In this document: in pieces, positions 11,273-31,347 of the stretch
Position numbering within the stretch: the stretch's first letter is position 1
Layout: each line of letters begins with the position of its first letter
Assembly (NCBI GenBank): GCA_963664825.1
Contig: OY761614.1
Location: 2,880,001 to 2,944,000 of the forward strand
Reading direction: 5' to 3'
DNA length: 64,000 nt
Origin: an uncultured Holophaga sp.
GTDB lineage: Bacteria; Acidobacteriota; Holophagae; Holophagales; Holophagaceae
Program-made: the position numbers and the translations under genes
Notes under the pieces: model-generated
What the model was told of the DNA's origin: nothing
Database searches by the model: none
Seen by the model: the letters and a program-made list of their open reading frames with translations, nothing else

Positions 11273-11347
11273 GGCGCCGTAGCCAAGTGGTAAGGCAGCA
11301 GACTGCAAATCTGCTATTCCTCGGTTCGATTCCGAGCGGCGCCTCCA
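11273..11347 (+). tRNA. tRNA-Cys(GCA), island integration site
   Basis: GCAGA-CT-GCA-AA-TCTGC anticodon arm, GGTTCGATTCC, CCA end. Confidence 0.97.
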
Positions 11348-15843: not shown

Positions 15844-16137
15844 ATGCGCCTGGTCTGCCTCTTCGACACCCACGGTCTTCATTACTTCATCACCATTCCA
15901 GAGGGTGATCTCTTGATCCATGCCGGCGACTCATGCAATGCGGGCTCTGAAGGGGAGGTGCGCAAGTTCGCCAAGTGGCTCAGGCATCCTCCTCACCGCC
16001 GGAAGGTGGTCATCGCGGGCAACCACGACTGGTTCTTTCAGAGACGGCCCCTGCGCGCTAGGGCCTACCTGGAGCCTGAGGCGATCTACCTGCAGGACTC
16101 GGGATGCGAGATCGGTGGAGTGAGGCTCTGGGGATCG
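15844..16137 (+). pseudogene. Calcineurin-like metallophosphoesterase, C-terminally truncated
   Basis: DTHG, IHAGD, IAGNHD motifs; breaks after LWGS into IS66 sequence. Confidence 0.8.
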
Positions 16138-16393
16138 TCATCCTCAAGCGGATCTTTCAGCGGCTGCCCAGCGTCGAAGGGAAACGGTTCTTCGAGCGCC
16201 TCCTCAGCTTGGGCGCCACAGCCAGAATTCGAGGCGTGGCCTACTACGACTGGCTGCTCAAGGCCCTCCGCGCCGCCAAGCTGGTCCAGCCGCTGCCGGC
16301 CCTCGAACCCGCCTGACGCCGCCTCCTGAAGACCTGCAGCAGCCTGGACAGGTCGGCCTACGGCCTACATGCACCCGGGGGGTGAATCGATAC
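16135..16393 (+). mobile_element. IS66 3'-end remnant (paralogue of 26199-27826)
   Basis: Encodes VILKRIFQRLPS..GKRFFERLLSLG..LPALEPA* as in 26290-27717; ends in TIR GGGGGTGAATCGATAC. Confidence 0.88.
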
Positions 16394-16401
16394 AGAGAAT
16401 T

Positions 16402-16433
16402 GGTCAGCGTGTGATGTAGATCACACGCTGACC
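16402..16433. promoter_or_regulatory. 14-bp inverted repeat containing a CRP/FNR-family-like TGTGA-N6-TCACA site
   Basis: GGTCAGCGTGTGAT-GTAG-ATCACACGCTGACC, ~110 bp upstream of rhs. Confidence 0.55.
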
Positions 16434-16541: not shown

Positions 16542-19500
16542 ATGATTATGCGTCGTGCTCTATTTGCTCTCTGTCTTTCTCTAAGCGAATTAGGAACAGG
16601 ATCTCTGGTAGCTCAGAGCTATCACAACTCGTTCTCGCCGGTGAATTACGACAGATCAAGGGGCCCAAGCGTTCTTAAAGGGGGTGTTGATGTAGATGCC
16701 GCTACCGGCGCTGTTTCTGTCGAGATTCCACTGGGCCCTGGCATAGGTGCACGAGGCGCACAATTTTGTCCCACCATTCGGGGGCGACATGCCGTCTATC
16801 AAGAACAAGCAAGGATAGGCCCATCCGCTGGGAATATTCACTATTTACCTAGTGGCTGTTTTGGGATAGCCCCAGGAAGCCTTCGCCTATCTGGAGGGTA
16901 TTATTTTGGAAGCTATGATGGACCACAAGGAGAATCTGAACATTTTGGTGTGATTAATGATAAAATTACCGATACACAATTAATTCTACAAAATTTTGGG
17001 TATTCAAATGGAACAGTTGTTTCTAAGCCTACCCAAACTGGAGACTCTAAGGGTAGACCTGGATACAGGCCAAGCGATGGACTTGCCGTTACTGACTCAG
17101 GTGCGCTTGTCATTCCACTGAGCCATCCTACGGAATTTCCTCCGCTCCAATTGACTGCACCCGTTGTGGAGGGGTATTCCCAAGCAATGTATAGCATTCC
17201 GCAACGTATATTGGTTGTAAAAGGGGATATTGGTTATGAATATGTATTTTCAAATCAGGCATGGTATATCCCTGTTGAAATGGATGATAGTGCGATTGTA
17301 GCAAACGTTCGCGCAACTGAAACAAATGTTTTTCTGCGGTGGGCTAGTGATAAAACTCCAATCGAATTTCCGCAATTGGTGTCTTTTGATAATTCCTTTT
17401 TGGCGTGGCGCGTTAATATATATCGTCCAGACCTGCTTAATGTTGCAATAGATCAAATTCAATATTCGTTAAGCCGTATTCTAAACAGGTTTGGTGAATA
17501 CATCCAATTTGATTATGGCACAAGATCAACTGGGCTTGATTATATGGCTGAATGGTTTCGGGATGGAAAATCGACAAACATAAAAATAAAACAAGAATAT
17601 ATTTCTCAAACGAGCGGTTCAAATTGGTGGGATACTCAGTATCAGGTGCGTCTGTCTTATGAAGGAGTTGAACATACAAGCTATTTGATAAACTTGGGGT
17701 TACAGAACTCATCTGCGGAAATTCGAACGGAAAAGTGGTGGGATAACATTTGGCATGGGTTTATTCCTTTGGGACGGTCTACGGCTGAGTCTGTATCTAC
17801 AATTGCGCCGATGATTAATAATAAAATTATAAGCGTTGTGCCGGAGTCTGCGCCTTCTGAAGCTATCGAATTCACATGGGAGTATCTGCCTATTAGTGAT
17901 GAGCTACGCACTGTGCCAGTGCGTCTTACAAAGGTCACTTCACCCGGTCGAGAAGTAAGCCTTTCTTGGGAAGCTTATGAATACATGCCGACAATGATGG
18001 GTGATTTTGGGTGGTGGATATTTACCAATTCGTACATAAAAGACCCCCTTGGTGCTCCAAAAATATATTATGCATTTGGTGTAAAACAATTAGATGATAA
18101 AGATACCGGAAATGGTCAAGTGCGAACAACCTCATTTATTCGTAAAGTACCTACCCCTGATTGGACGTGTAAAAGTCTATGGAAAACTACCGATTTTTAT
18201 GCGGTTGTGATCTACCCTGATCACTCTAAAACAATGTACCGTTACCTAGACGCTAAGGAGCTAACGGTACCTGCAGGGGCTCCACCTGCAGAGGGCTGTA
18301 TCCGGGCGACTGCTTTCTGGAAGAACTTCCCAATGGAGGAGCGCCATTACGGATCGCTTACGTCATGGGAATCAGATATTTCAAAGACTCCCAATAATTG
18401 TAGCGCTCAGACTGTGATATTAAGGGACAGGCTGACTCTTATATCGCCTGGAAATCCTAGCGGGATATATTCCGGCAGCAGTCAAGTCATTCCTACTCGC
18501 GTGCGAGAGCTGGATCTGTTGAATCAAAGGCTGACATCAAGTGAACTTGTAAATTGGTCTTCGACGTCCCTTGGTTGGAGGCAGCAGCGAAAATTGACTT
18601 ATATGGGAAATGGCATTCCAGATCTAACTATCGACATTTCTAGCCTTGAAGACAAAAAAGCACAACCAGCTGATCGTAATCCATTGGTGCAATGCGTAAT
18701 TGATATGGAATATAGCACGAATCTATCGCTTTGGTGGTTGGCTCGAAACATTTGGAAGCAAAGTACGATGGTGATGGATGCGACTGGCAGTACTACTAGT
18801 CCATCTGGGTTCTTGATAGCAAATAGCACAAAGACATTAGATGATCTAAATAGGGTTACGCAGGCTCAAACAGGAGCATCCTTCTTGATGTCGACCGTAT
18901 TCTCTTATGATGATCGTAAAGCGTTGCCTCAAAGCGCAATACTTCGGTCTAGTCAATCTTTTCCTCTGCTATTTAGTGGGAATATTGGATCAAAATTTGA
19001 TTACGATCAGTCATATGGATTTTTATCGACAATTCACCCATCTCTTTCAACTGCAAACCTGACGGTCAGTCAGGTCAGTGATGCTGCGAATCGTCCCACA
19101 AGCCAGGTTGGAATGGATAGCTTGTCAACGGGCATTAAATGGGATCCACTGGGGCGCCTCAATCTGATTACCCCTCCGGGTGGGGATGAGTCAACCTCAT
19201 ACACTCCTGATCCTGACGGTCTTGGGGTTGTGATTGAGAGAGGAGTAGAAAAAACGCAATTGCGATATAATGCCTATGGAGAATTGGTTCTCGAGAGAAA
19301 ATTTGATGCAGCACATGGAGTTATACACCGGGCGCTCGGATATGATTTGGCTGGTAGGAAAATCTGGGAAACTACATGGCGCAAGGGGAGTGGTGATGAG
19401 TTTGGTTGGAATAAGCCACTAGCTCCAGATGATGAGGAAACCCTTCCTTGGACCGAAGCGACTAACGAATGTGCCTCATTCGATGTTCGAATTGTAAATG

Positions 19501-22220
19501 GCCAAGAAACATATGTTTGCACAAGCTATTTGACGGTAGATCACCCATATTCAGTCAGTTATGTAAATAGCACTCATACATTTTATGATGAATTTGGTCG
19601 AGTGATTCTCACTGTAGATCCGAATGGATCTGCCACAAAAATTGATTATAGTTTTCTTGTAAAAACTGTTACCACGGGCCTTCACTGGGATGGTGCAAAT
19701 GCAAACCCCACCCCGGCAACGGCTCGAACGATATTTCTGCAGGACGCTAATGGGCGTCTCGTTAAAGTCGTAAATGCTCTGGATCAAGTGACTGAATACT
19801 TTTACGATGGCGCAGGTAGAATTACTGAAGTCCGACAGTACCCTACATCCTCTTGGAATGGTTCTATGTGTGTGGGGACTGGAACCCCACAGAGACGGTT
19901 TTGGGTATACAATGGTATAGGTTGGCTGGTGGTGTTGGATCAACCCGAAAGTGGAGTGACCTACTACACATCCTTTACCGTGCAGGGGAAACCCACTGAA
20001 ACTATCTATGGTCTCCCTTGTGGTTGGCGTCCTTCCGACTTGAATGTTCGTGACAGCAGCGCCTTTAGCAGAGTGGGCGCAAAAGCCATAAATGTGCAAT
20101 ATGACGATATGGGAAGGACCAAAAGCACACAATCGAGTGATGGTACCGTTGATCAAGCGAACGAATATGGAGCCCCTGGCGTTGTTGCGGCACAAAACGT
20201 TGGAAAACTGGTGAGGATTACCACTAGGCAGGGTTTTGAAAAGACATTAGATTATGATCCTGGAACTGGTCGACTTTCAGCTTTAAGACAAAAAATGGAC
20301 GGATTGCCGCCATTTGAACAATCAATAGGGTACGATACCTATGGGCGAGTTGCCTTACGAATATATCCAGACCAAAAACAGCAAAGGATTCAGTATGACA
20401 ATGCCAAAGGGATCCCAAGCAATGCATATTTTAATTCCAACCAATTAGCAACCTTTTGCTGCGATGATGTTTGGTTATTGCATGCGTTATCTTTTGCAAA
20501 TGGGGCTACATCAACTTTTTTATACGACCGAGATCAAGTTCGACTGGCTAGTCTGAAACAGGAGGTGCCTGGGTCCCTTTTAAAAACTTGGAAATATAAT
20601 TATAACGATGCCGGGCAACTTGGTACTGATGGCGAAAATTGGTACACACATGACCAACTTGGTCGGCTAACTCTGGCATATGTTCGTGATCTATCGGGCA
20701 TCACTTGCCAAGGGGTTCGCCAAGAATTTGCATATGACTCATTCGGAAATCGTCTGAGTGCTGCCACCTGTTTGGTCAGTAATTGGGAGGCTGGGGCACC
20801 CCCCCCAAGTGCGCTAGTCAAGGGAGTGCTTCCGAATGCTCTGACAGCCCTTAATTTCTCGTTCAATAGGTCCGATGCTGCCTTAGCCCGAAATCGGCTT
20901 CCCACAGCTGGGGTCAATGGGGCAGGCACAGGCGCGCTGTACGATACTTTGGGAAATCTGCAGTGTGTCAATACCATTCCCGGGGCTGTGGAAAGTCAGG
21001 TAGCATTCACCTACGATGCTTTAAGCCGAGTTGTGACCCAAAGCTATGGGTCAAATAGTTCTCGCAAAACTGAGGCCTACCTCTATGATGACGAAGGGCT
21101 GCGGATCAAGGTTCTCGAGTCCACTGGGAAAATTCGCTATAACATCTACAACGAAGCCCGCCAGCTCATCGCCCAGTACGAGAAGACGCCCTCCGGTCCC
21201 CTGACCTGGAAGAAGGACATCGTCTACGTCGGCACCAAGGAAATCGCCGAAGTTTCCTCCGACGGCAAGACCAGCGTCACCCTCTGCGATCACCTGGGCA
21301 GCCCCCGCTATAGCTGGGACGGCACAACGCTGACCGAGCAGAAGTTCTTACCGTTTGGTGAGCCGCTAGCCAGCCCGACCGCATCGGCGAAGTTCGCCAA
21401 GGGCTTCACTAACCACGAACAGACGGACGCATCTGGCCTGATCTACATGCAGGCTCGGTTCTATCTGCCTGCCTATGGGCGCTTCGCCAGCCCAGATCCG
21501 GCGCGGGATCAGCACTTTGAGAACACCCAAAGCTGGAACATCTACTCCTACGTCTGCAACAACCCCGTGATGATGACTGACCCCACCGGGATGTTTAGCT
21601 TCAAAGACGCTTGGGACTACACCAAAGACGTCGGAAGATCTTTGGTCGGCGAAGCAAAAGGGGTTGCTGCGGTTGGCGTAGGGATCGCTAAGGCCGTTGC
21701 CCATCCAGTGGACACTGCAAAGGCTCTCGGCAATGCGGCGGCTCATCCCATCGCGACTGCAAAGGCCGTTGGCAACGCGGTTTCGAGTGCTGTAGCCAAT
21801 GCCAATACACCCGAGCAGGCTGGGAAACTGGTTGGGAACGCCCTGGCCAATGCTTTCCTAGTGGCAGCTCCATTTGCCAGTGCCGCAGGTGGTGCTGGAG
21901 AGGTGGCTAATGCCGCAGCGATAACGGAACGCGCTGGGGCGACATCGGGACTTGAGGCCGCTGTCGGAGAAACCAGGGTCACGCGCTGGATGGGGGAAGC
22001 AGAGTCTGTAGCCATGAAGGACAGCGGGAACCTCCAGTTTGGCGCTGGCGGGAGATCCTACGTCACCGACCTTGGAGCCCCCCAACCGGGTGGGACTGGA
22101 CCAGTCCAGGTTAATTTCAATGTTCCAACCCAAAGTTTGCAACCGGCTGGCAATCAAGGCTGGTATCAGATTCTGGATGCAAAGCGCCCTCCGGTTACCG
22201 GCATTGAGGTGGTAAAGTGA
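16542..22220 (+). CDS. Rhs/YD-repeat polymorphic toxin with N-terminal signal peptide and ART-like C-terminal toxin
   Basis: YD repeats, DHLGSPR, GFTNHEQ..SGLIYMQARFY..GRF.SPDP..NNP....DPTG core. Confidence 0.93.
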   Translation: MIMRRALFALCLSLSELGTGSLVAQSYHNSFSPVNYDRSRGPSVLKGGVDVDAATGAVSVEIPLGPGIGARGAQFCPTIRGRHAVYQEQARIGPSAGNIHYLPSGCFGIAPGSLRLSGGYYFGSYDGPQGESEHFGVINDKITDTQLILQNFGYSNGTVVSKPTQTGDSKGRPGYRPSDGLAVTDSGALVIPLSHPTEFPPLQLTAPVVEGYSQAMYSIPQRILVVKGDIGYEYVFSNQAWYIPVEMDDSAIVANVRATETNVFLRWASDKTPIEFPQLVSFDNSFLAWRVNIYRPDLLNVAIDQIQYSLSRILNRFGEYIQFDYGTRSTGLDYMAEWFRDGKSTNIKIKQEYISQTSGSNWWDTQYQVRLSYEGVEHTSYLINLGLQNSSAEIRTEKWWDNIWHGFIPLGRSTAESVSTIAPMINNKIISVVPESAPSEAIEFTWEYLPISDELRTVPVRLTKVTSPGREVSLSWEAYEYMPTMMGDFGWWIFTNSYIKDPLGAPKIYYAFGVKQLDDKDTGNGQVRTTSFIRKVPTPDWTCKSLWKTTDFYAVVIYPDHSKTMYRYLDAKELTVPAGAPPAEGCIRATAFWKNFPMEERHYGSLTSWESDISKTPNNCSAQTVILRDRLTLISPGNPSGIYSGSSQVIPTRVRELDLLNQRLTSSELVNWSSTSLGWRQQRKLTYMGNGIPDLTIDISSLEDKKAQPADRNPLVQCVIDMEYSTNLSLWWLARNIWKQSTMVMDATGSTTSPSGFLIANSTKTLDDLNRVTQAQTGASFLMSTVFSYDDRKALPQSAILRSSQSFPLLFSGNIGSKFDYDQSYGFLSTIHPSLSTANLTVSQVSDAANRPTSQVGMDSLSTGIKWDPLGRLNLITPPGGDESTSYTPDPDGLGVVIERGVEKTQLRYNAYGELVLERKFDAAHGVIHRALGYDLAGRKIWETTWRKGSGDEFGWNKPLAPDDEETLPWTEATNECASFDVRIVNGQETYVCTSYLTVDHPYSVSYVNSTHTFYDEFGRVILTVDPNGSATKIDYSFLVKTVTTGLHWDGANANPTPATARTIFLQDANGRLVKVVNALDQVTEYFYDGAGRITEVRQYPTSSWNGSMCVGTGTPQRRFWVYNGIGWLVVLDQPESGVTYYTSFTVQGKPTETIYGLPCGWRPSDLNVRDSSAFSRVGAKAINVQYDDMGRTKSTQSSDGTVDQANEYGAPGVVAAQNVGKLVRITTRQGFEKTLDYDPGTGRLSALRQKMDGLPPFEQSIGYDTYGRVALRIYPDQKQQRIQYDNAKGIPSNAYFNSNQLATFCCDDVWLLHALSFANGATSTFLYDRDQVRLASLKQEVPGSLLKTWKYNYNDAGQLGTDGENWYTHDQLGRLTLAYVRDLSGITCQGVRQEFAYDSFGNRLSAATCLVSNWEAGAPPPSALVKGVLPNALTALNFSFNRSDAALARNRLPTAGVNGAGTGALYDTLGNLQCVNTIPGAVESQVAFTYDALSRVVTQSYGSNSSRKTEAYLYDDEGLRIKVLESTGKIRYNIYNEARQLIAQYEKTPSGPLTWKKDIVYVGTKEIAEVSSDGKTSVTLCDHLGSPRYSWDGTTLTEQKFLPFGEPLASPTASAKFAKGFTNHEQTDASGLIYMQARFYLPAYGRFASPDPARDQHFENTQSWNIYSYVCNNPVMMTDPTGMFSFKDAWDYTKDVGRSLVGEAKGVAAVGVGIAKAVAHPVDTAKALGNAAAHPIATAKAVGNAVSSAVANANTPEQAGKLVGNALANAFLVAAPFASAAGGAGEVANAAAITERAGATSGLEAAVGETRVTRWMGEAESVAMKDSGNLQFGAGGRSYVTDLGAPQPGGTGPVQVNFNVPTQSLQPAGNQGWYQILDAKRPPVTGIEVVK

Positions 22221-22612
22221 TGGAAAATCATTCTTTATACGCTATCGGCTGTAATGCCATTGACTTCGATGCCTGTAAGGCTGTGGCCGAAGAAGAGTGT
22301 GGTCCAGTCGAAGTTCAATCAAATCGAATTTTTATTAAAACAAGCAGCGGCAGCATTCAGATGGAGATGTGCACGAACGACATGTTCAAAGATGAGGTCA
22401 TTGTTATTTCTGTGAATGAAGTGCTGCAAGACCTTGTGGGGCAGGCGTGGGGAATCCTGATTGGTCTTTTTGTCCAATTTGATACGCCTGTTTGGATATC
22501 TACCTACAATCGGCAATACCTTGAAAAGTATGGGGATGTTGTGGACCTAGAAATCAACGAAACTAGTGGCTTTTTAATGAGTCCTGGTTCCTTCGACAAA
22601 ATGATTTCATAG
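22217..22612 (+). CDS. Putative cytoplasmic immunity protein
   Basis: Small acidic AT-rich ORF translationally coupled to the rhs stop. Confidence 0.7.
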   Translation: MMENHSLYAIGCNAIDFDACKAVAEEECGPVEVQSNRIFIKTSSGSIQMEMCTNDMFKDEVIVISVNEVLQDLVGQAWGILIGLFVQFDTPVWISTYNRQYLEKYGDVVDLEINETSGFLMSPGSFDKMIS

Positions 22613-22718
22613 GTCTAGGCGGTAGGTGACCATTGTTCTTTCGCAAGAAGAAGCTCCCCGAGATCGTCATCCTGCCTGCGGGGTTCAGGGTCAATGACAC
22701 CGTGATCAGCAGTTTCTC

Positions 22719-23483
22719 CTCATCCCGGTGCGGCAGTGGTTCAGTTGGCTGGTCAAGCAGGGGCACCTCCCGTTCAGCCCGGCGGCGGAGCTGGAGCTGC
22801 CCAAGGTGGTGCGCAGGCTGCCCAAGGCCATCCTGTCCGCCCAGGAGGCCGAGGCGGTGCTGGCGATGCCCAACGTGGCCACGGCGGTGGGGCTGCGGGA
22901 CCGGGCGATCCTGGAGACGTTCTACTCCACGGGCATCCGGCGGACGGAGCTGACTAAGCTGGCCATCCAGGACGTGGACCGGGAGCGCGGGACGCTGTTC
23001 ATCCGTGAGGGCAAGGGCAAGAGGGACCGCATGATCCCCATCGGCGAGCGGGCGTTGGCGTGGATCGCCGCCTACCGCGACCGGGCGAGGCCCGAACTGG
23101 TGGGGCTCCAGGACGACGGCACGTTGTTCCTGAACAACCTGGGCAGGCCGCTGAAGCCGTTCCACCTGACCATCCTGGCCGGGCTCTACGTGAAGAAGTC
23201 CGGCATCGGCAAGGAGGGTGCCTGCCACCTGTTCCGCCACACGATGGCCACGCTGATGCTGGAGAACGGCGCGGACACCCGCTACATCCAGGCCATGCTC
23301 GGCCACGCCAGCCTGGAGACCACGCAGATCTACACGAAGGTGAGCATCCGGGCGCTGAAGGCCATCCACACGGCCACGCACCCCGGCAGGATGCCGGAGG
23401 CCGCCCGGAAGTGGTTGGAGAAGGAGCCCGACCCGACCGCCGCAGACCTGCTGGTCCGGCTCGGCCAGGAAGACCCGGAATGA
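22719..23483 (+). pseudogene. XerC/D-like tyrosine recombinase, N-terminally truncated
   Basis: RDRAILETFYSTGIRR, GKGKRDR, HLFRH, LGHA, TQIYT; in-frame stop at 22695 so the N-terminal domain is largely missing. Confidence 0.85.
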
Positions 23484-23758
23484 AGGCGGAGCAGGTCATC
23501 GACGGCATCCCCGTGAACCCCGTGCTGCCGGTGGCGTTCTACGACACCCCCAACGAGGCCAGGCCCGCCAGCCAGGACGAGTGGTGGGACCGGCCCTACG
23601 TCATCACGGTGCCCAACGAGCACTGGCCCCAGGGCGTCCGGTTCGACACCTACTGCCTGGACGGCGGAGCCTGGGACCGGCCCACGGCCTGGGGCAAGTT
23701 CGGGACGTTGGAGGAGGCCATCGCCTGCGCCAAGACCGGCCCGGCCTGGCGGCGCTGA
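23480..23758 (+). CDS. Small Trp-rich hypothetical protein
   Basis: ATGA overlap with recombinase stop; GC3-biased codons; CLDGGAWDRPT.WG motif. Confidence 0.65.
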   Translation: MKAEQVIDGIPVNPVLPVAFYDTPNEARPASQDEWWDRPYVITVPNEHWPQGVRFDTYCLDGGAWDRPTAWGKFGTLEEAIACAKTGPAWRR

Positions 23759-23864
23759 GGCCCGTGGGGGAGCGAGGGGTGGTCGAGCGATTTATTACGG
23801 GAGGGACCCACAAGACCCTGGGATAGTTGTGAATACCTGGACGTTCCAACTTGAGGGAGACCGC

Positions 23865-24446
23865 ATGGGCCTCGTGGTGAGCAGCTTAAGTCATGTCCCT
23901 TTGAACGCCGACCGGGATTACTTCATCTACCTCCTACGTGGGGGCTGGAATAGCGCCCTGGACCAGGTGCTGGAGTCGCATTTCATGCGTTTCGCTCAGG
24001 AAGCAAGCGAGACCAGGTCCGCCGTCATCGCCGGGCTGCATGGCAGTCACTTCGGCAACGACGTGTTCTCGTGGCACCACATCAACGGCGAGGACGGCGA
24101 GGCGGCACTGCCCGCAATCCTGCTGACGACGGTTCACCCGAAATACTTCGAGCACGAAGGCGATCCCTTCTGGAGGACCAATGCGCAGAAGGACTACATG
24201 CAGTTGATCCCGTTGAAGAAGTGGGCCAACTCTGCGGATGACGTCATCACCCTGGTTCAGAGGATCTTTTCGGACATCAAGGAGCACAAGGAGCTGCGGG
24301 ACTTCACGGTCGTCAAGGAGATCCGGAGAGCGGGGGGGACGGCGCTCATGGATGGCGTGGTCCTCCAGCCCAACTTCCTCGGCCTGGGCGCTGACCTGAA
24401 GAAGTTAGCAAAGGCGGTTCGGGGCAAAGGGGCGGCGAAGAAGTAG
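23865..24446 (+). CDS. Hypothetical protein
   Basis: GAGGGAG RBS, coding-like codon bias, globular composition. Confidence 0.7.
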   Translation: MGLVVSSLSHVPLNADRDYFIYLLRGGWNSALDQVLESHFMRFAQEASETRSAVIAGLHGSHFGNDVFSWHHINGEDGEAALPAILLTTVHPKYFEHEGDPFWRTNAQKDYMQLIPLKKWANSADDVITLVQRIFSDIKEHKELRDFTVVKEIRRAGGTALMDGVVLQPNFLGLGADLKKLAKAVRGKGAAKK

Positions 24447-24634
24447 CCTCTCTGTGGTGCCGAAGGCAGGGACCAGATCGGCGGCGGGGTAGGCGGGCCG
24501 AGATCCGGGGAAGCAGTGAATGGTTGGGGAGGTTACCCTGATGGGGTGCCTCCCCATCTCGATGTTTTTCCTTTAGCCGCTCTCCCTGGCCGCCGGTCCC
24601 CGGTAGGCCGTCAGGGCTGTGGTGGCGGGAAAGT

Positions 24635-24683
24635 CGCGTCAGGGGGTCTCCGGGGCTACAATGGGTTCAGTTCATTGAAAAGC
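24635..24683 (+). repeat. Conserved pre-cassette motif, copy 1
   Basis: CGCGTCAGGGGGTCTC-N24-TTGAAAAGC; same layout at 28074-28122. Confidence 0.8.
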
Positions 24684-24740
24684 CCCGTGCCACAAGGGAA
24701 AGTGCCCTCTCGTAGGCGGGAGTTGCATAGGGGCACCCAC

Positions 24741-25505
24741 ATGCAGGCTCGCTTCTATCTGCCGATATATGGGCGGTTTGCATCTCCAGATCCGGCGAGA
24801 GATCAGCACTTCGAAGACACGCAGAGCTGGAACATCTACAGCTATGTGCAGAACAACCCGGTGATGAGCATTGACCCCACTGGGATGGTTGATAACCCTT
24901 TCCAGGAACAATTGACTAGATCTAGAATTGTTGATGGAAAACAATCATCAGAGACGATTTCAATCAAAGGTCATAATTTAGATGCTTTGGGCATAAAGGT
25001 GTATGAAACGGTCGGTAAACCTGGTAGTTTTAGTGATGGTGTTTTGTCTGCTGGGCGTGGCGATGTTTCATTCGCACTGGATGCAAAAGGCTCATTTAGT
25101 CAGAATGGATCACCATCATTCACGGGGAGCTTAGATAAGCTTGTAGCTTGGGATCAACAGCTGTCAGGCAAAAAATTCGATGCGGCTATTGGATGCACGC
25201 TGAGTGCATCGGCTGATGTGGCTACACTTGGGCTCGCTGGGTCTGCGGAAAGGGGTCTGGCTGGCGCCTTTAAATGGGTAGCGGGGTTGTTCGCGCCAAA
25301 GGTGCAAAATCCAATCGGCATTGCTAATACGGTCAACGGGGTAGCCACAGGGGACAAATCGACTCCCGGAAAGGCTTTACTGTCAACGGCAATGTCCATT
25401 GCGCCAATTGTTGGAACCCTTAAGGGGGTTTCTGATGCAGACAAACTAAACAACCATGGGGTCGAATTAGTGAAAGAAAAACCAAAAAACATCAAAGAAC
25501 AGTGA
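24741..25505 (+). CDS. Orphan Rhs core tip + C-terminal toxin of unknown type
   Basis: Begins MQARFY..DPTG (144-bp block homologous to 21447-21590), then unrelated Gly/Ala-rich CT. Confidence 0.85.
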   Translation: MQARFYLPIYGRFASPDPARDQHFEDTQSWNIYSYVQNNPVMSIDPTGMVDNPFQEQLTRSRIVDGKQSSETISIKGHNLDALGIKVYETVGKPGSFSDGVLSAGRGDVSFALDAKGSFSQNGSPSFTGSLDKLVAWDQQLSGKKFDAAIGCTLSASADVATLGLAGSAERGLAGAFKWVAGLFAPKVQNPIGIANTVNGVATGDKSTPGKALLSTAMSIAPIVGTLKGVSDADKLNNHGVELVKEKPKNIKEQ

Positions 25506-25577
25506 TTACGTGCCATTTTTCCGAAAATGTTAAAACGAAAAATAAGCAATCAGTTATGAACGCGGAGAGAAATTCCA

Positions 25578-26060
25578 ATGAATATTGAGCTTGATGTTGG
25601 AGAATTTGTTGTTTCAAAAATTCGCAAACGACCATTGTTCTTATTTTTTGGACTACTATTCAATCGCATTGCTCCTGGTTTTTTGTTGTTCCCAATGTTG
25701 ATTTATTCGATGGTGCGCCCAAAGGAAATGGTATCTGCCATTTCGTCTGAAAATTCCTGGCTTATTGTGTTATTTTTTTTGATAGTTGCGTTGGGGATTG
25801 TTGGTCAGTCAATTATTGTGTATGATTTTTTCACAAAAACTATCGCTATAACCAATCAAAGAGTGTTGATAATAAAGCAAAAATCAATTGTTTCGTATGA
25901 ATTTAGTAAAATATTGTCGCATGAATCGCGTGACGGCTTCTTTGCATCCGCGCTTACATTAAAATTCGATGACCAAAATATTGTTGTACTAGATTATTTG
26001 GACCCTTCGAGTGTGGGTGAATTTGAATCCGAATTATTAAAATGTAAAACAACAAAGTAA
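25578..26060 (+). CDS. Putative membrane immunity protein (2 TM + PH-like domain)
   Basis: Follows the orphan CT; GGAGAG RBS; two hydrophobic segments then AITNQRVLI. Confidence 0.65.
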   Translation: MNIELDVGEFVVSKIRKRPLFLFFGLLFNRIAPGFLLFPMLIYSMVRPKEMVSAISSENSWLIVLFFLIVALGIVGQSIIVYDFFTKTIAITNQRVLIIKQKSIVSYEFSKILSHESRDGFFASALTLKFDDQNIVVLDYLDPSSVGEFESELLKCKTTK

Positions 26061-26122
26061 TTTCCTAGTGTTTATCATGAACACTAAAATTTCTCTGGTC
26101 GTCAACTCCAAATAATCGACTG

Positions 26123-26190
26123 TCCCTCGCCAAGTCTCGATCCATGCCGATTACACGTTCCAACCCACAGCAAGCTAACACCACGCCCCT
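26123..26190 (+). repeat. Conserved post-immunity tail, copy 1
   Basis: TCCCTCGCCA...CGTTCCAACCCACAGCAAGCTAAC; second copy at 29359-29418. Confidence 0.8.
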
Positions 26191-26198
26191 CCTTCGGG

Positions 26199-27826
26199 GT
26201 ATCGATTCACCCCCTTTGTCCCAGCGACCGCGTAAGCCGGTGGCAGCCACCCGTGATGGGCTGGTGATGTACCGCTTGTCCTGTCAGCCTCAGGCCGGTT
26301 CCAGTGCCGGTAGGGGCTGATTCGATTGGGCAGCGTGGAGGGCCTTGAGCAGCCAGTCGAAGTAGGGGACGCCGCGAATGCGGGCGGTGGTGCCCAGGCT
26401 CAGGAGCCGTTCGAAGAATCGCTTTCCGTCCGCGCTGGGCAGCCGCTGGAAGATCCGCTTGAGGATCACGAGGGGGCGCAGGGCGCGTTCGGCGGCGTTG
26501 TTGGTGGGTTCCACGCCTTCGACCTTCAGGAACACCCAGAGCTTGTCCCATTTTCGGAGGAGGTCCCTCCCGAGGTTCCGAGCGGCCCTGTGATCCATCG
26601 TGCTGGCCTGGATCAGGCCGCGTTTGAGCCGCGCCAGATTGAGGGCGGTGCAGGCCCGCAGATCCTTGCGGCTGATCTCGTTGGCCCGGAAGGCGTGCCA
26701 CAGCGCAAAGACCTCCTCCTGCTCGGTCAGGAGGCGCTTCCCCAGCGCGGCCACCTCGGGCTTCGCGGATTCGCTGAGGGCGATGAACTCCCTGCGCAAA
26801 TGGGCCCAGCAGAACTGGCGAACGGCAGATTTCAAGGCGTTGTAGGCGCCGTACCGGTCCGTTCCGATGACGCCACTGAAATCCTCGGGAAGCATCGCGG
26901 TCAGGGCCCTCGCCCCACGGGTGTCGCTGAAGTGGAAGAGGGCCGTGCGGGCGGAAAGGGCCACCCAAATCCAGTCCCGATCCTTCCGCCCAAAGCCGGT
27001 CTCGTCGAGGTTGAGCACGTCCGCCGTACGGATCTGCTGGGAGAGGTCCTCCCAGGCGGGCAGCAGATGGTTCCCGAGGGCCACGCCGCTCTCATGCAGC
27101 CAACCGCGTGAGACCGCTACGCCCGTCACCTCCAAGAGGAAACGTTGGAGCGGCGTCAGGCTCATGCGGCCCTCCGTGCGTAGATAGGCCGCCGCAGCCT
27201 GGAGGCGCGGGCCGATCCCGCCGGGCGCGGCCTCCGGTGGCAGCGAAGCCCGGACTTTTCGCTGGCAATGCGGGCAGATGCCCTCCTCCAGCGCGTAAGC
27301 GATGACTTCTGTGAGTCGCTGAGCCAGATCCACCACCCGGTGCAGGCGCGTCCCGGTGATGGCCCCTGAAGGAACCTCGCCGCGGCAGTGGGGGCAGCAG
27401 GCGAGGGGCACCGCCACGGTCCGATCCTCGCTGCCCTCCGGCAACATCACCCGAGCGGACCCCTTCCGTCCCGGTTGGCCGCCGCGCTTGCGCCCCGTGG
27501 GCGGCATCGGTGGTTTGGGCGGTGCTGCGGGCCCGTCCGAGCTGGGAGGCTTGCTGCTGTTGCGACTGTCTTTCCCGAGCCGCTCCTGGAGGGACTCCAG
27601 CAGCTTCTCCAGACGTTCCATCGTCTCCCGCAGGCGAGTCATTTCCGCACGCAGTTCCCCGTTCTCGGCAGCCAGCGCCAGATAACGCGGATCAGTCAGA
27701 ACGGGATCAAGCTCCATCCTTTAGAATCTGACTGGTTTGAGACCGAAGTACAAGTAAATTATTCACTTGCAGTGATTCCCCCCCCCTCAATCACGAGTTG
27801 AACCTGAAGGGGGGGTGAATCGATAC
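26199..27826 (-). mobile_element. IS66-family element (single-ORF type)
   Basis: 16-bp TIR GTATCGATTCACCCCC; 8-bp TSD CCTTCGGG (26191-26198, 27827-27834). Confidence 0.94.
26290..27717 (-). CDS. IS66 transposase
   Basis: DSRNSSKPPSSD, LDETG, QFCWAHLRR, PTNNAAERALR. Confidence 0.93.
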   Translation of the reverse strand: MELDPVLTDPRYLALAAENGELRAEMTRLRETMERLEKLLESLQERLGKDSRNSSKPPSSDGPAAPPKPPMPPTGRKRGGQPGRKGSARVMLPEGSEDRTVAVPLACCPHCRGEVPSGAITGTRLHRVVDLAQRLTEVIAYALEEGICPHCQRKVRASLPPEAAPGGIGPRLQAAAAYLRTEGRMSLTPLQRFLLEVTGVAVSRGWLHESGVALGNHLLPAWEDLSQQIRTADVLNLDETGFGRKDRDWIWVALSARTALFHFSDTRGARALTAMLPEDFSGVIGTDRYGAYNALKSAVRQFCWAHLRREFIALSESAKPEVAALGKRLLTEQEEVFALWHAFRANEISRKDLRACTALNLARLKRGLIQASTMDHRAARNLGRDLLRKWDKLWVFLKVEGVEPTNNAAERALRPLVILKRIFQRLPSADGKRFFERLLSLGTTARIRGVPYFDWLLKALHAAQSNQPLPALEPA

Positions 27827-27951
27827 CCTTCGGGAGGGGTGCTGCTATACGCCGTAGAACGCTCTAGGATGTGCCTGGCGTGCTGTGGGCATGGTTGGTG
27901 ACCTGAGCTGCTGCCGTGTGTCCTGGGTGCAGAGGAGCGCGGGGGGTAGTC

Positions 27952-28001
27952 GGTCGGGGCTTGGTCGGGCATCGGTCGGGGTCCGGTCGGTAGGTGGTCG
28001 G
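27952..28001 (+). repeat. Five GGTCGG hexamers at exact 11-bp period
   Basis: Starts at 27952, 27963, 27974, 27985, 27996. Confidence 0.85.
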
Positions 28002-28073
28002 GCTTGCTGATTCCCTGCAGAGGCAATAGTGGCGCGTGGATGCCTGCTGGGATCGCTTCCACGCGTCTGGAGC

Positions 28074-28122
28074 CGCGTCAGGGGGTCTCGCTGCTACCCT
28101 GGGATCACGATCTTTGAAAAGC
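28074..28122 (+). repeat. Conserved pre-cassette motif, copy 2
   Basis: CGCGTCAGGGGGTCTC-N24-TTGAAAAGC as at 24635-24683. Confidence 0.8.
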
Positions 28123-28178
28123 ACCATCCCGTCTAAGTTTGCTGCCATTTGAGCGCAGAACCGCAGCAGGGCTGCCTT

Positions 28179-28898
28179 ATGCAGGCTCGCTTCTACCTCC
28201 CCATGTGGGGCAGGTTCGCCTCACCCGACCCGGCGCGGGATCAACACTTTGAGGAAACGCAGAGCTGGAATATTTACAGCTATGTAAGAAATAACCCGGT
28301 GATGATGACGGACCCCACAGGGGAGTACGCCAAAATCACGGTGGAAGGTAAAAATATGACAGTTGTAATTCCTGTATCCTTTGGCGGTGCTGCTTCCGCT
28401 GAGCGGATTATGGCATTTACAAGGGGCATTGAATCTCTAAGTGGTAAGGTCGGCGACATGAATGTGAGTTTCAGAGTTGATACTTCAGCTGACCCAGAAG
28501 CAAATACAACAAATCAGGTCAACTTCAAAGAAGGTAAGGGCACATCAAACGTTGAGCCAAGGGGTGGAAAAATGGTCGCCACTCTATACGCTGGCACTGA
28601 ATCAAATAGCGAAAAACTTGCAGCTGTATCTGGACACGAAGGAGTGCATCTTGCTGGGGCACTGGATGCCTATAAGGTCGTTGACGGCAAAGTTGTATTA
28701 AATCGGGACTCCGGTGGGAAAGATAGGCTTGGCAATCCAGATACACGGAAAAAGACGGATGTAATGTTTGATCCAGCGAAAGGCAAGGTATCAAAGGATG
28801 ATGTAAAGCAAATGCAAAATTCTGATCTTCAAAAGCTATTCAAAAAAGAAAATCCAAATGGGCTTCCAGTCCCAAATAATGATGTTGAGAGGAAATGA
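28179..28898 (+). CDS. Orphan Rhs core tip + HExxH metallopeptidase-like toxin
   Basis: MQARFY..DPTG tip; GHEGVHLAGALDAY zincin-like motif. Confidence 0.82.
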   Translation: MQARFYLPMWGRFASPDPARDQHFEETQSWNIYSYVRNNPVMMTDPTGEYAKITVEGKNMTVVIPVSFGGAASAERIMAFTRGIESLSGKVGDMNVSFRVDTSADPEANTTNQVNFKEGKGTSNVEPRGGKMVATLYAGTESNSEKLAAVSGHEGVHLAGALDAYKVVDGKVVLNRDSGGKDRLGNPDTRKKTDVMFDPAKGKVSKDDVKQMQNSDLQKLFKKENPNGLPVPNNDVERK

Positions 28899-28899
28899 A

Positions 28900-29331
28900 A
28901 TGAAAACCATGGCGTTTCTGTTCGTTTTGATGACATCGTTGCTTGTGGCAGCTCCCACCCCACAAAGCGATAAAATAGTTGCATCTGGTCTTGAAATAGC
29001 TGTTGGTGGAGAAATGCAAATACGAGAAAGTCGCGAACAGCATGGCGAGGTATATAATTTCCAAATCCTTCTAAAAAAAGGGCGTTTGATTGGGCGGGGG
29101 TGCATCGCCTATCGGATTGATGATCCAGTCGCAAAGGGCTTCCAAACAAGAACGACCGTACATAACGGCATTGTTTGGAAATACGCAATTACTGGGAATA
29201 CCATCTCATGCGTTGGTAAGCTCTCCAACTCGCAAGAAGCTCCATCCATCTCGCTTTATGTAAAACATGCTCCATATATCCGGAATCCTGAATCAATGTT
29301 TAAGGCAATCGCTATAAAGAAGGTTGAATAG
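28900..29331 (+). CDS. Putative exported immunity protein
   Basis: Starts 1 bp after toxin stop; signal peptide MKTMAFLFVLMTSLLVA-A. Confidence 0.7.
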   Translation: MKTMAFLFVLMTSLLVAAPTPQSDKIVASGLEIAVGGEMQIRESREQHGEVYNFQILLKKGRLIGRGCIAYRIDDPVAKGFQTRTTVHNGIVWKYAITGNTISCVGKLSNSQEAPSISLYVKHAPYIRNPESMFKAIAIKKVE

Positions 29332-29358
29332 GTTGCTGAAAGGATTCGAGGACTGTTA

Positions 29359-29418
29359 TCCCTCGCCATCTCTCAATCCTACCGTTCCAACCCACGGCAA
29401 GCTAACGTTCCACCCCTC
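29359..29418 (+). repeat. Conserved post-immunity tail, copy 2
   Basis: TCCCTCGCCA...CGTTCCAACCCACGGCAAGCTAAC (23/24 identical to 26156-26179). Confidence 0.8.
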
Positions 29419-29472: not shown

Positions 29473-30183
29473 TCACCCGATGCCCGTGATACGGGCACCA
29501 CGGATGTTGAGGGTTGCGATAACGCCACGAACCTTCAGCTCCTCGAGGAATTGAGGGAAGGGCCGGACGTGTGGATGGGCTTGCGCGGCTGTGATGGCCT
29601 CATCGATTACGGCGCGAAACTGTTGTTTTTTGGTGGGAGCTCTGGTTCGCTCCGCAAGGGCACGCTCTTTCCCGCGGAGGCGAGTTGTGTCCAGGGCCTT
29701 CCGCTGATGAGTCCTCCCACTTCGGGTCGGGCTCGGCACGGGCTCGAGGCCGAACTGTTCCTCAATGATTCGGAGCGCGCTTTCGACCTTCCGGAAATCT
29801 CGAAGATGCTCACGGGCAATGCTCCCGTCGGCTCGAACTCGAGTAGCGACGATGTGGACGTGCTCGTGGGGGCGGTCGTGGTGCTGGACCACGGCGTAAC
29901 TGTCCCACCCCATTTCTCGAGCCACATCTGCCGCCGCCAGGAGCCAACTCTCCGCTGTGAGATGCTCACCTGGAAGCAGGGAGATAGAGAGGTGTCGGAC
30001 GGGTTTGGTGACCCGCGCCCGGAGTGCGGCGATGGTCCTAAGTTCGGCGGCCAGTTCTTCTGGGGACTCCCCTGCGAGGGTTCCCCCGAGGAGTACACCC
30101 CGAGGTTCACCGTTCTCCTTGCCTCGAAATAGGTACCGGAGGAGTGGCGCAAAATCAGTCCCCTTGATGAGCTTGCCGATCAC
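29473..30183 (-). pseudogene. MOBP-type relaxase, probably C-terminally truncated
   Basis: VIGKLIKG..F..LLRY, PVRHLSISL, HHDRPHEHVHIV..RV; ends abruptly at ITGIG. Confidence 0.8.
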
Positions 30184-30526
30184 GACGGAGCTCCTTCTGG
30201 ACGTGGAGGAGAAGAATCCGCAACGCCTGGATCTCGGTTTGGAGGCGTTCCTCACCCGGGAAGACACCGCTGTTGAGGGACCTCGCTATCTGGTTGAGGT
30301 TGCTCCCGACCCGGCCGAGCTCCTGAGCGAAGGCGCGGTCGATGTTGGGAGGCGGCACCTTTCCGAGAAGTAGGCTTCGACCGAGTGCGGAGAGGCTGAT
30401 GCCCCGAGTACGTGCAGCCGCCTGGAGCTGGATATGCTCAGTCCCTGTTAGGCGAATTGTGAGAATGACGGCGCGGCGAAGCTCTTCCGCTACGCGGTGG
30501 GGTCGAAGGGATTCGATAGTGCTCAT
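30155..30526 (-). CDS. mobC: MobC relaxosome accessory protein
   Basis: RHH-like N-terminus; ELGRVGSNLNQIARSLN motif; directly upstream of relaxase. Confidence 0.88.
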   Translation of the reverse strand: MSTIESLRPHRVAEELRRAVILTIRLTGTEHIQLQAAARTRGISLSALGRSLLLGKVPPPNIDRAFAQELGRVGSNLNQIARSLNSGVFPGEERLQTEIQALRILLLHVQKELRRDRQAHQGD

Positions 30527-30557
30527 GGATGGTTTCCTTTCCTTGCCGGAAGGCAGA

Positions 30558-30650
30558 CGGGGTTCAGGGGCATGGCCCCTGGCGAGCGGCAGACGAATAC
30601 CGAGGCGAGCGGAGCGACCCGAGGTATTCGCTCTGCCTTGCTCGCTAGTC
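30558..30650. other. Candidate oriT
   Basis: Nested inverted repeats (CAGGGGC/GCCCCTG; GCGAGC-GGCAGA-CGAATACC / GGTATTCG-TCTGCC-GCTCGC) just upstream of mobC. Confidence 0.55.
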
Positions 30651-30669
30651 GTGAACGGGTGGAGCCTGC

Positions 30670-31347
30670 CTACTGAATCGGGTTTCTGGGTTGTAACCTT
30701 CGGTCCCGACTTCCCTTCGGGAACTCGATCCACATGGACATGTGTTGTAAGCGACTGAATACAGGTGCTCCGTAGCGCAGTAATAGCGCTTCTGCATTGC
30801 AATTGGTGGTGCAGCTCGTGGGCTTGAAGTGATCGTACCGGTGGCGAATCACGCGCTCGACGAAGGCCAGACCTTTATCAGCTTCACGGCCGCCCCGCTC
30901 CTTCATTTCGGCTCCAAGGTCATCCAGAAACAGGTAGTCAACATGGAGGAAACGCTGCAGGAACCGTTCCTGGTCTGCTGCCCGCAGTGCCATGCTCTTC
31001 CATTCCGCCACGAGGTCAGGAACGCTCCGCCAAAGTAGGGGCAGCTTTGAAGATTCGATAAACTCAGGTGTGTGGGAACCGTACCGCTTTCCAAACACCA
31101 GCTTTGCAAAGGCCGCCATTGCATAGGTCTTTCCCACTCCTGTGGTGCCCACGAGAAGGACTGCATTAGGGCGGGTTTTCATAAACAAGTCCGTGAGTAA
31201 GCTCTCGATCCGTCGACGGATTTGTTCGTCCAGGTGGGATGGATTTGCATGGATCTCGGATGGCGGGATTCCTCCGCGCTCGAGAAACTCCTGGATTCGA
31301 CCTTCCCGTGAGATTTGGATTTTGGGGAACTCAAATTCCTGGTTCAT
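30670..31347 (-). CDS. DnaC/IstB-like AAA+ ATPase (helicase loader)
   Basis: GTTGVGKT, LFLDDLGAE, RY....T..TTN, FSRL. Confidence 0.85.
   Translation of the reverse strand: MNQEFEFPKIQISREGRIQEFLERGGIPPSEIHANPSHLDEQIRRRIESLLTDLFMKTRPNAVLLVGTTGVGKTYAMAAFAKLVFGKRYGSHTPEFIESSKLPLLWRSVPDLVAEWKSMALRAADQERFLQRFLHVDYLFLDDLGAEMKERGGREADKGLAFVERVIRHRYDHFKPTSCTTNCNAEALLLRYGAPVFSRLQHMSMWIEFPKGSRDRRLQPRNPIQ

Follow-up and report, generated by a model that had tools for sequence, protein, structure and literature searches.

Two decayed tandem copies of a putative toxin-tip-swapping element behind an rhs gene of an uncultured Holophaga sp.

The 64,000-nucleotide (nt) stretch of an uncultured Holophaga sp. 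genome analysed here (contig OY761614.1, positions 2,880,001 to 2,944,000 of the forward strand; hereafter the window) carries a full-length rhs gene, followed by a tyrosine recombinase gene and by two units, each composed of a short orphan Rhs tip, a C-terminal toxin domain (CT) and a putative immunity gene (Imm). From the sequence of this region and of its relatives it is proposed, with a probability of about 0.7, that the two units are decayed tandem copies of an integrative element which swaps toxin tips, its recombinase joining the right end of the element to a core inside a polymorphic-toxin gene. A sequence-only reading of the same DNA had seen in them discrete cassettes added at a specific site, integron-like but without attC, and had named tandem remnants of related elements as an alternative; the alternative is the better reading, in view of a primase remnant in the window and of the tandem backbones present in relatives. 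The locus is composed as follows (aa, amino acids; ORF, open reading frame; IS, insertion sequence).

16542..22220, + strand: full-length Rhs/YD protein, 1892 aa, with a TreTu_C-like C-terminal toxin, CT0 (Pfam RHS_repeat; TreTu_C E 1.2e-9; TIGR03696)
21447..21590, + strand: tip of the Rhs core in the full-length gene, opening with 11 nt (ATGCAGGCTCG) that are identical in all three tips and would be the left att core
22217..22612, + strand: putative CT0 immunity gene, so assigned from its position and its overlap with the rhs stop
22707..23483, + strand: tyrosine recombinase, N-terminally truncated, probably of the NF002331 (PRK01287 'XerC') mobile subfamily (NCBIfam 333.5 bits)
23480..23758, + strand: 92-aa cargo ORF, with a 71% tblastx homologue directly behind the recombinase in locus L189 and no family match
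23865..24446, + strand: 193-aa cargo ORF, with no match in Pfam, NCBIfam or PADLOC
24628..24740, + strand: right end of element 1 (the 'motif'), abutting the core (more than 20 family loci have profile matches; the core follows at a fixed spacing of 60-65 nt)
24741..25505, + strand: putatively displaced tip 1, Rhs core tip plus CT1 (TIGR03696 E 4.6e-12)
25578..26060, + strand: putative immunity gene 1, a membrane protein with a bPH_3 domain (Pfam E 1.4e-5), its role suggested by position
26121..26191, + strand: tail 1, similar over its first 29 nt to the terminus of an rve-type insertion sequence
26198..27826, - strand: IS66-family element, multicopy in the genome (Pfam DDE_Tnp_IS66, NF033517; at least 17 other copies of each end)
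27951..28004, + strand: 54-bp primase-gene remnant, from the 3' end (81-87% to the corresponding ends in L090, L084 and L093, E about 1e-6)
28067..28178, + strand: right end of element 2 (blastn, profile match and spacing to the core)
28179..28898, + strand: putatively displaced tip 2, Rhs core tip plus CT2 (TIGR03696; a 64% homologue is an orphan in genome G016)
28900..29331, + strand: putative immunity gene 2 (a 35% homologue comes after the CT2 homologue in G016)
29359..29418, + strand: tail 2 (blastn, local alignment)

The three Rhs tips of 144 nt (21447-21590, 24741-24884 and 28179-28322) are indeed homologous, being pairwise 76-79% identical (110-114 of 144 nt) with longest identical runs of 14-17 nt; all of them open with ATGCAGGCTCG, and upstream the similarity ends within 2 nt of it. 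The motif preceding the two orphans (24632-24686 and 28071-28125) is 80% identical over 56 nt, with an E of 6e-6 in the whole 3.47-Mb genome, and is thus repeated as first described, if slightly longer than the 49 bp then given; exactly two copies, and no third, occur in that genome. Both orphans begin at the same start codon and at nearly the same distance from the motif, as the sequence-only reading had it, 109 and 108 nt separating the start of the motif from the ATG, and 60 and 59 nt separating the ATG from the end of the TTGAAA box; in right end 1 this box is accompanied by the box GTCGCGTCAGGGGG, a CTACA box and a degenerate third box. The conserved tail (26123-26191 and 29359-29418) is found in exactly two copies in the genome, 77% identical by blastn over 57 nt (E 8e-6), and the local-alignment scores of the motif region and of the tail, 105 and 85, exceed the maxima of 500 shuffles (83 and 70). 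CT1 and CT2 bear no relation to each other, and behind each of them stands a small ORF of low GC content; the recurrence of a common architecture (motif, Rhs tip, unrelated CT, immunity, tail) is confirmed. Two cargo ORFs lie between the recombinase and motif 1, and the multicopy IS66-type element and the 54-bp primase-gene remnant between units 1 and 2; this remnant, standing before right end 2, shows that unit 2 once had a backbone of its own.

In relatives, complete elements are repeated in tandem. In the Fluviicoccus locus L132, two 7128-bp units, 99.94% identical, lie between the full-length gene and a different CT, the order being full gene, core, CT_A, Imm, cargo, primase, recombinase, end, core, repeat unit, end, core and CT_B, and the three junctions have only 18 nt in common, with one mismatch. 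In the complete Pseudomonas genome G737, two 6.5-kb units (99.4% identical) are bounded on both sides by GGTG(C/T)AAAAG, a core which the full cdiA of that genome also carries; an identical 10-nt core is present at three junctions in L196, and three tandem units stand behind the full cdiA in L197. Short direct repeats at both ends, with the target in frame, measure 18 nt in L132, 10 nt in G737 and L196, and 11 nt in G132d and in the window, and across the core the reading frame of the full-length gene is preserved in L132, L105, L113 and G132d. Since the tandem units share only this 10-18-bp core with the full gene and with the displaced tip, they bear the footprint of site-specific integration. 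Among 401 Pseudomonas genomes, 21 matched a query made of the end plus the CT, while 15 of the 17 end-only matches stop at the core; the ends with a readable box and downstream sequence run into a different CT in all cases (9/9), the strict box pattern having matched 11 of 18 Pseudomonas loci. Taken together, these comparisons support a site-specific process as a better fit than homologous recombination. The integron-like scheme of the sequence-only reading stands in part: site specificity is supported, and core-bounded modules devoid of a backbone do occur in relatives, but the window units are probably not cassettes of one integrase, since unit 2 has its primase remnant and intact relatives repeat the whole backbone. 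The later loading of modules onto the full rhs through the 144-bp block was not upheld; loading would most likely be the integration event itself, at the ~10-bp core.

The motif is the conserved right end of a primase-recombinase element. Over 51 family-level stretches it lies 100-172 nt before the ATG in 20 of 23 short orphan tips (19 by profile, one by eye) and in one of 39 long-core tips, a ratio that is enriched, the loci having been gathered in part with a motif-plus-tip query; it does mark the left boundary of short orphans, and a profile scan of related genomes, with matches in more than 20 family loci, links it to this recombinase clade. Among 27 ends, 22 carry a GCARRC/GCAATC core 60-65 nt downstream of the TTGAAA box and one at 48 nt, four ends having none, and shuffling yields a mean of 2.0 such spacings and a maximum of 8. 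The core is used at three positions of rhs: at the MQ codons, as in the window, at EQ codons ten residues earlier, and at SQ/AQ codons ~50 residues after DPxG; some ends lead into non-tip sequence. At the SQ site, 11 nt (G132d) and 10 nt (G016b) are common to the full gene and to the orphan that follows the end, and in G132 two paralogous rhs genes are identical as far as a GTCGCAA core and divergent beyond it. Of the seven adjacent tip pairs of the MQ class, six agree in 11 nt or more counted from the ATG, compared with 25% of 222 cross-genome pairs; this puts the crossover close to the ATG, with the reservation that the pairs are not independent of one another. A GCGTC box occurs 21 nt before GCAAA in Pseudomonas, in Fluviicoccus and in L134. 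An attC-like hairpin or an RNA structure in the right end was rejected: the 21 ends examined have no consensus pairs and their fold z-scores are inconsistent (-4.7 to +2.1), in agreement with the absence of attC already noticed. A CTACA(A/C)T sequence of the motif, read by eye, resembles a -10 box and brought a sigma-70 promoter into consideration; a promoter would leave unexplained the fixed distance of 60-65 nt to the core at three sites, though it may be a second role of the motif.

The tail behaves differently from the motif when both are followed into relatives. The pair in the window is real and beats its shuffles, but a general right boundary it is not: profile and blastn searches find it after only one of 12 other motif-bearing units with enough sequence, and in four of 132 other family genomes, two of these matches being weak and most lying beside an rve-type transposase. 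The consistent bracketing expected of motif and tail is retained for the motif and rejected for the tail. The first 29 nt of the tail are 97% identical to L168/L193, where they follow a tRNA-like gene (read by eye) and precede the transposase 3' end. In G002, G004 and G119 they are found close to where an rve-type transposase gene ends, in G119 beside a tRNA-like gene; the tail is probably the end or the scar of an insertion sequence, and not a cassette boundary.

The recombinase upstream of the units, rightly called Xer-like, probably belongs to the NF002331 subfamily, which it matches from profile position 107 with 333.5 bits against a curated cut-off of 371; its N-terminal ~95 residues are missing and with them the SAM-like domain, while the R-K-H-R-H-Y pattern of the catalytic domain is kept. 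It is 81% identical to an intact family homologue (intact homologues score 431-488 bits), and it is probably inactive. The IntI profile TIGR02249 gives 114 bits with the intact homologue and 93 bits with the window protein for a cut-off of 265, the best family being NF002331, and the XerC and XerD equivalog profiles give 232 bits (TIGR02224, cut-off 335) and 227 bits (TIGR02225, cut-off 330) with the intact homologue; by these scores the family recombinase is neither an IntI-family integrase nor a chromosomal XerC/XerD equivalog.

A scan with one genome per species matched 429 relatives, and the counts of neighbouring genes were taken from the best 76 loci. In intact loci the recombinase is preceded by a CHC2/Toprim primase of ~1000 aa, directly upstream in 66 of the 72 loci with upstream room, and the backbone consists of CHC2/Toprim (primase) and Phage_int_SAM/Phage_integrase (recombinase) domains; the layout of the unit across the family is core-tip/CT-Imm-cargo-HTH-primase-recombinase-cargo-right end. 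The relatives span Acidobacteria, Proteobacteria, Verrucomicrobia and Myxococcota, the closest ones being in Geothrix, Holophaga and Holophagaceae, and their distribution is patchy: at E 1e-90 the family is present in 7 of 301 genomes of the phylum and in none of 14 controls. Of the 30 loci with 4 kb or more of upstream sequence, 20 have a gene of the Rhs, CdiA or pre-toxin type there (Pfam RHS_repeat or DUF637 identify 16; the tip profile, PT-TG or a toxin CT another four), and downstream ORFs match CdiA-CT/CdiI, colicin D-like, deaminase and PT-VENN families (89 of 159 candidate ORFs scanned). In a recombinase tree of 22 rows, from which two short fragments were excluded, the clades track the target site, with support of 100/100 for the MQ clade, which includes the window, and 100/99 for the SQ clade.

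According to the mechanism that these observations suggest, the unit would be excised in circular form, its right end thereby adjoining core-CT-Imm, and would be replicated by its primase; the recombinase, for which the GCGTC boxes may be the binding sites, would then catalyse insertion of the circle at a matching ~10-bp core of an Rhs/CdiA toxin gene. The new CT would be fused in frame to the carrier gene and the old CT, together with its immunity gene, displaced behind the end of the element, and in the window CT2 would accordingly be the oldest domain, CT1 the next and CT0 the newest. Both backbones of the window are decayed or deleted and no element-type primase is found elsewhere in the genome, where there is only a 28% DnaG-like match, so that the locus is probably inactive on its own. 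A circular record of 11,289 bp from Lonsdalea populi (NZ_CP072857.1) contains two units and no full-length rhs. Apart from two Rhs tip-CT-Imm modules it carries nothing but the recombinase, a complete and a truncated primase, HTH/SymE and a toxin-antitoxin (TA) pair, and it may represent an excised circle or else a collapsed repeat. A broader proposal, towards which we lean with less assurance, is that a cross-phylum family of self-replicating, toxin-tip-swapping elements is the missing machine of C-terminal displacement, a primase-recombinase unit integrating at a ~10-bp core of Rhs, CdiA and further polymorphic-toxin genes and re-arming its host with a toxin and immunity pair of its own while the old immunity is kept, with cores that evolved repeatedly, and that it may also move CT-Imm modules devoid of a backbone.

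Several observations weigh against the proposed element. The expected core is missing at four of the 27 ends (G004, G007, G098 and L094), the core pattern was set after the data had been seen, and 13 of its 23 hits are the same rhs codons. In 10 of the 30 loci no toxin gene was detected upstream. One element with a KG site nests within the MQ clade and, since kin share both recombinase and site, the pattern of the tree is not independent evidence, only consistent with a specificity set by the enzyme. Misassembly could account for the tandem repeats and for the circular record; four sequencing runs compared with L105, available as contigs only, showed no excision joint or empty site, and no pair of empty and occupied sites was found from one strain lineage. 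Two family pairs have identical runs of 38 and 41 nt, and the 144-bp tip leaves room for homologous recombination. Lastly, orphans without a motif begin at the core right after an immunity gene in L105, G016 and G737, which simple integration does not explain.

These backbone-free orphans (three in L105, three in G016, and in G737), beginning at the core after the immunity stop, are what would be expected of an integron-like array, in which one recombinase stacks small core-bounded CT-Imm circles at an attI-like site formed by motif and core; the exact core-to-core match of a CT-Imm module of L105 to contigs of other strains (three runs from two studies) agrees with it, as does the XerC/D-like recombinase, IntI being of the same kind. 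Such an array is nonetheless unlikely for the window, as every unit there comes with a separate end, and unit 2 also with a primase remnant, complete backbones are tandemly repeated in relatives, the 21 ends lack a consensus hairpin, the IntI score is 114 of 265 bits and the tail is not general; there may yet be an integron-like side activity, given the core-bounded modules. It has also to be considered that circles replicated by the primase may rely for their integration on homologous recombination by the host, acting on the shared tip, with the XerC-like enzyme doing no more than resolve multimers at the motif. The 144-bp tip is common to the class of the window, G076 has classical orphans that are long, variable and motif-less, and recombination of this kind figures in the model of Jackson et al. 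(2009) and in the experiment of Koskiniemi (2014), in the parts of these papers available; an account of this sort is improbable, however, where only 10-18 nt are shared, as in Fluviicoccus, Pseudomonas and the SQ class, and in the window the tips are only 76-79% alike, with longest runs of 14-17 nt, and the orphan starts are fixed relative to the end. Least probable of all, and indeed hard to credit, is a transposon-like element without a toxin of its own, preferring core-like sites in toxin arrays whose orphans pre-existed and were not swapped by it: the core is short and degenerate, certain ends precede non-tip sequence, and the unit begins at the core of the orphan, not of the full gene, in G737 and L196, but the repeated unit contains CT and Imm in L132, G737 and L196, and the full-length gene is in frame at the core in L132, L105, L113 and G132d.

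The proposed tip-swapping element can be set beside several known systems. Integrons are composed of IntI, attI and attC, the last a folded single-strand hairpin at the end of the cassette; the element has in common with them a short degenerate crossover core and the position of older modules further downstream in the array, and differs in lacking IntI and an attC hairpin and in having the recombinase inside the repeated unit. Classical rhs orphan arrays are made of long near-identical core fragments with variable 5' ends, whereas the window orphans have one start codon and 76-79% identity. In the rAID arrays of Bacteroidales, said to have been described by Ross and colleagues in 2019, a Xer-like recombinase is reportedly linked to the accumulation of immunity genes; polyimmunity loci and rAIDs share this association with the present element but are immunity-only arrays, whereas in the present case the toxin tips are joined to a full-length carrier gene and a primase accompanies the recombinase. 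Islands that target tRNA genes restore their target. Elements that target genes interrupt or restore them, while the present one would rewrite the 3' end of its target with a new toxin domain.

As far as the available portions of the sources go, HE-PICIs are satellites targeting protein-coding genes (Tommasini et al. 2023, PMC10111431) and resemble the present element, as other gene-targeting elements do, in an integrase with a replication gene, an intragenic att core and integrase subclades respecting site groups. Phage records gave no match to the element at E 1e-60 and IMG/VR only five distant or partial matches, and no capsid or terminase annotation was seen in three annotated family loci. 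For rhs, circular intermediates arising by homologous recombination were proposed by Jackson et al. (2009, PMC2935791) with no integrase known, and their displacement model has the same elements as ours, namely tip and CT on a circular intermediate, a single crossover and an old tip moved downstream; recombination was shown over 522 bp at 95% (Koskiniemi 2014). Rhs-associated integrases of Snodgrassella and Gilliamella were described by Steele et al. (2017, PMC5727410), who called for further work; these too are genes for tyrosine recombinases close to Rhs loci, and a role in moving toxin or immunity genes is suspected, but the passages at hand give neither an element nor an att site or a primase. 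Zhang et al. (2012, PMC3482391) observed that XerC/D recombinase genes adjoin polyimmunity loci, and their Additional File 1 may list loci of the present type; the 'Xer-dependent recombination systems' near poly-immunity arrays of Xenorhabdus and Photorhabdus, attributed to Martinkus et al. 2026 in the part available of bioRxiv 10.64898/2026.07.13.738213, may overlap with the element. No description of the primase-recombinase unit, of its end or of its core was found in the full-text literature searched, which included few subscription papers and no supplements, and the portions available of Poole 2011, Smyshlyaev 2021 and PMC3486870 have no relevant passage on such a unit for the terms tried.

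Since Jackson 2009 it has been asked how polymorphic toxins gain new C-terminal domains and yet keep the immunity genes of the old ones; the family offers a candidate enzyme, an end sequence and a crossover core for this displacement, which makes the proposal directly testable by a plasmid assay. If true, it would give a function to thousands of genes annotated only as 'xerC' and 'CHC2 zinc finger protein', would tie the fitness of the element to the interbacterial competition of its host, and would provide a small recombinase making in-frame domain fusions at a short core; the window locus would be a mere fossil of the tip-swapping process.

As to the individual gene products of the window, CT2 bears HEGVH, a motif of the HExxH type read from the sequence, while for the function of CT1 no match was obtained in Pfam, NCBIfam or PADLOC, Atlas giving only weak leads with scores below 0.9, and the putative CT0 immunity ORF (22217..22612) has no family match in Pfam, NCBIfam or PADLOC.

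Some further observations concern the relatives. In L134 (G149:C9:1239011-1273344) four diverged tandem units with four ends are present, all CTs beginning after MPVLAQSQ, and no full-length carrier toxin gene is seen up to the contig end. The classical rhs orphan array of G076 (C1:1321000-1327000, L082-L083), with long variable core fragments and no element end, provides a contrast within the family, and in L031-L032 (G016:C1:484000-497500) rhs is split in two ORFs, and a second, inverted copy of its C-terminal part stands amid several IS copies. In L088 (12025-12876) and L090 (12899-13765) a gene for a serine recombinase/resolvase immediately precedes a primase without the CHC2 finger. Behind the recombinase, an ORF of ~90 aa starting with M(K/Q)W(E/Q)I(T/E/V)KII and having no Pfam match occurs in L102, L103, L111, L115 and L120, from marine Gammaproteobacteria. 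RelE/ParE type II toxin-antitoxin pairs are often placed between the recombinase and the right end (L114, L119, L120, L123, L195-L197), and in the same group SymE stands beside an HTH gene, TA pairs and SymE being as expected for stabilisation of the element.

In the genome of the window, a second full-length rhs of the same clade (L035, G000:C1:3463285-3473526; at 3.469 Mb) is followed by a fragment of an rve-type transposase and has neither a right end nor a recombinase. The rhs locus of the window itself sits in an island of ~21 kb (11273-32422), with tRNA-Cys (11273-11347) at one boundary and at the other a direct repeat, 49 bp long, of the 3' part of this tRNA gene (copies at 11300 and 32374), in which no intact island integrase was noticed among the window ORFs; its cargo comprises type I restriction fragments, IS66 copies and genes for a relaxase, MobC and an IstB-like ATPase (29473-31347). 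Just 5' of the rhs start there is an IS66-type stub (16135-16393), followed by a near-perfect palindrome of 32 bp (16402-16433).

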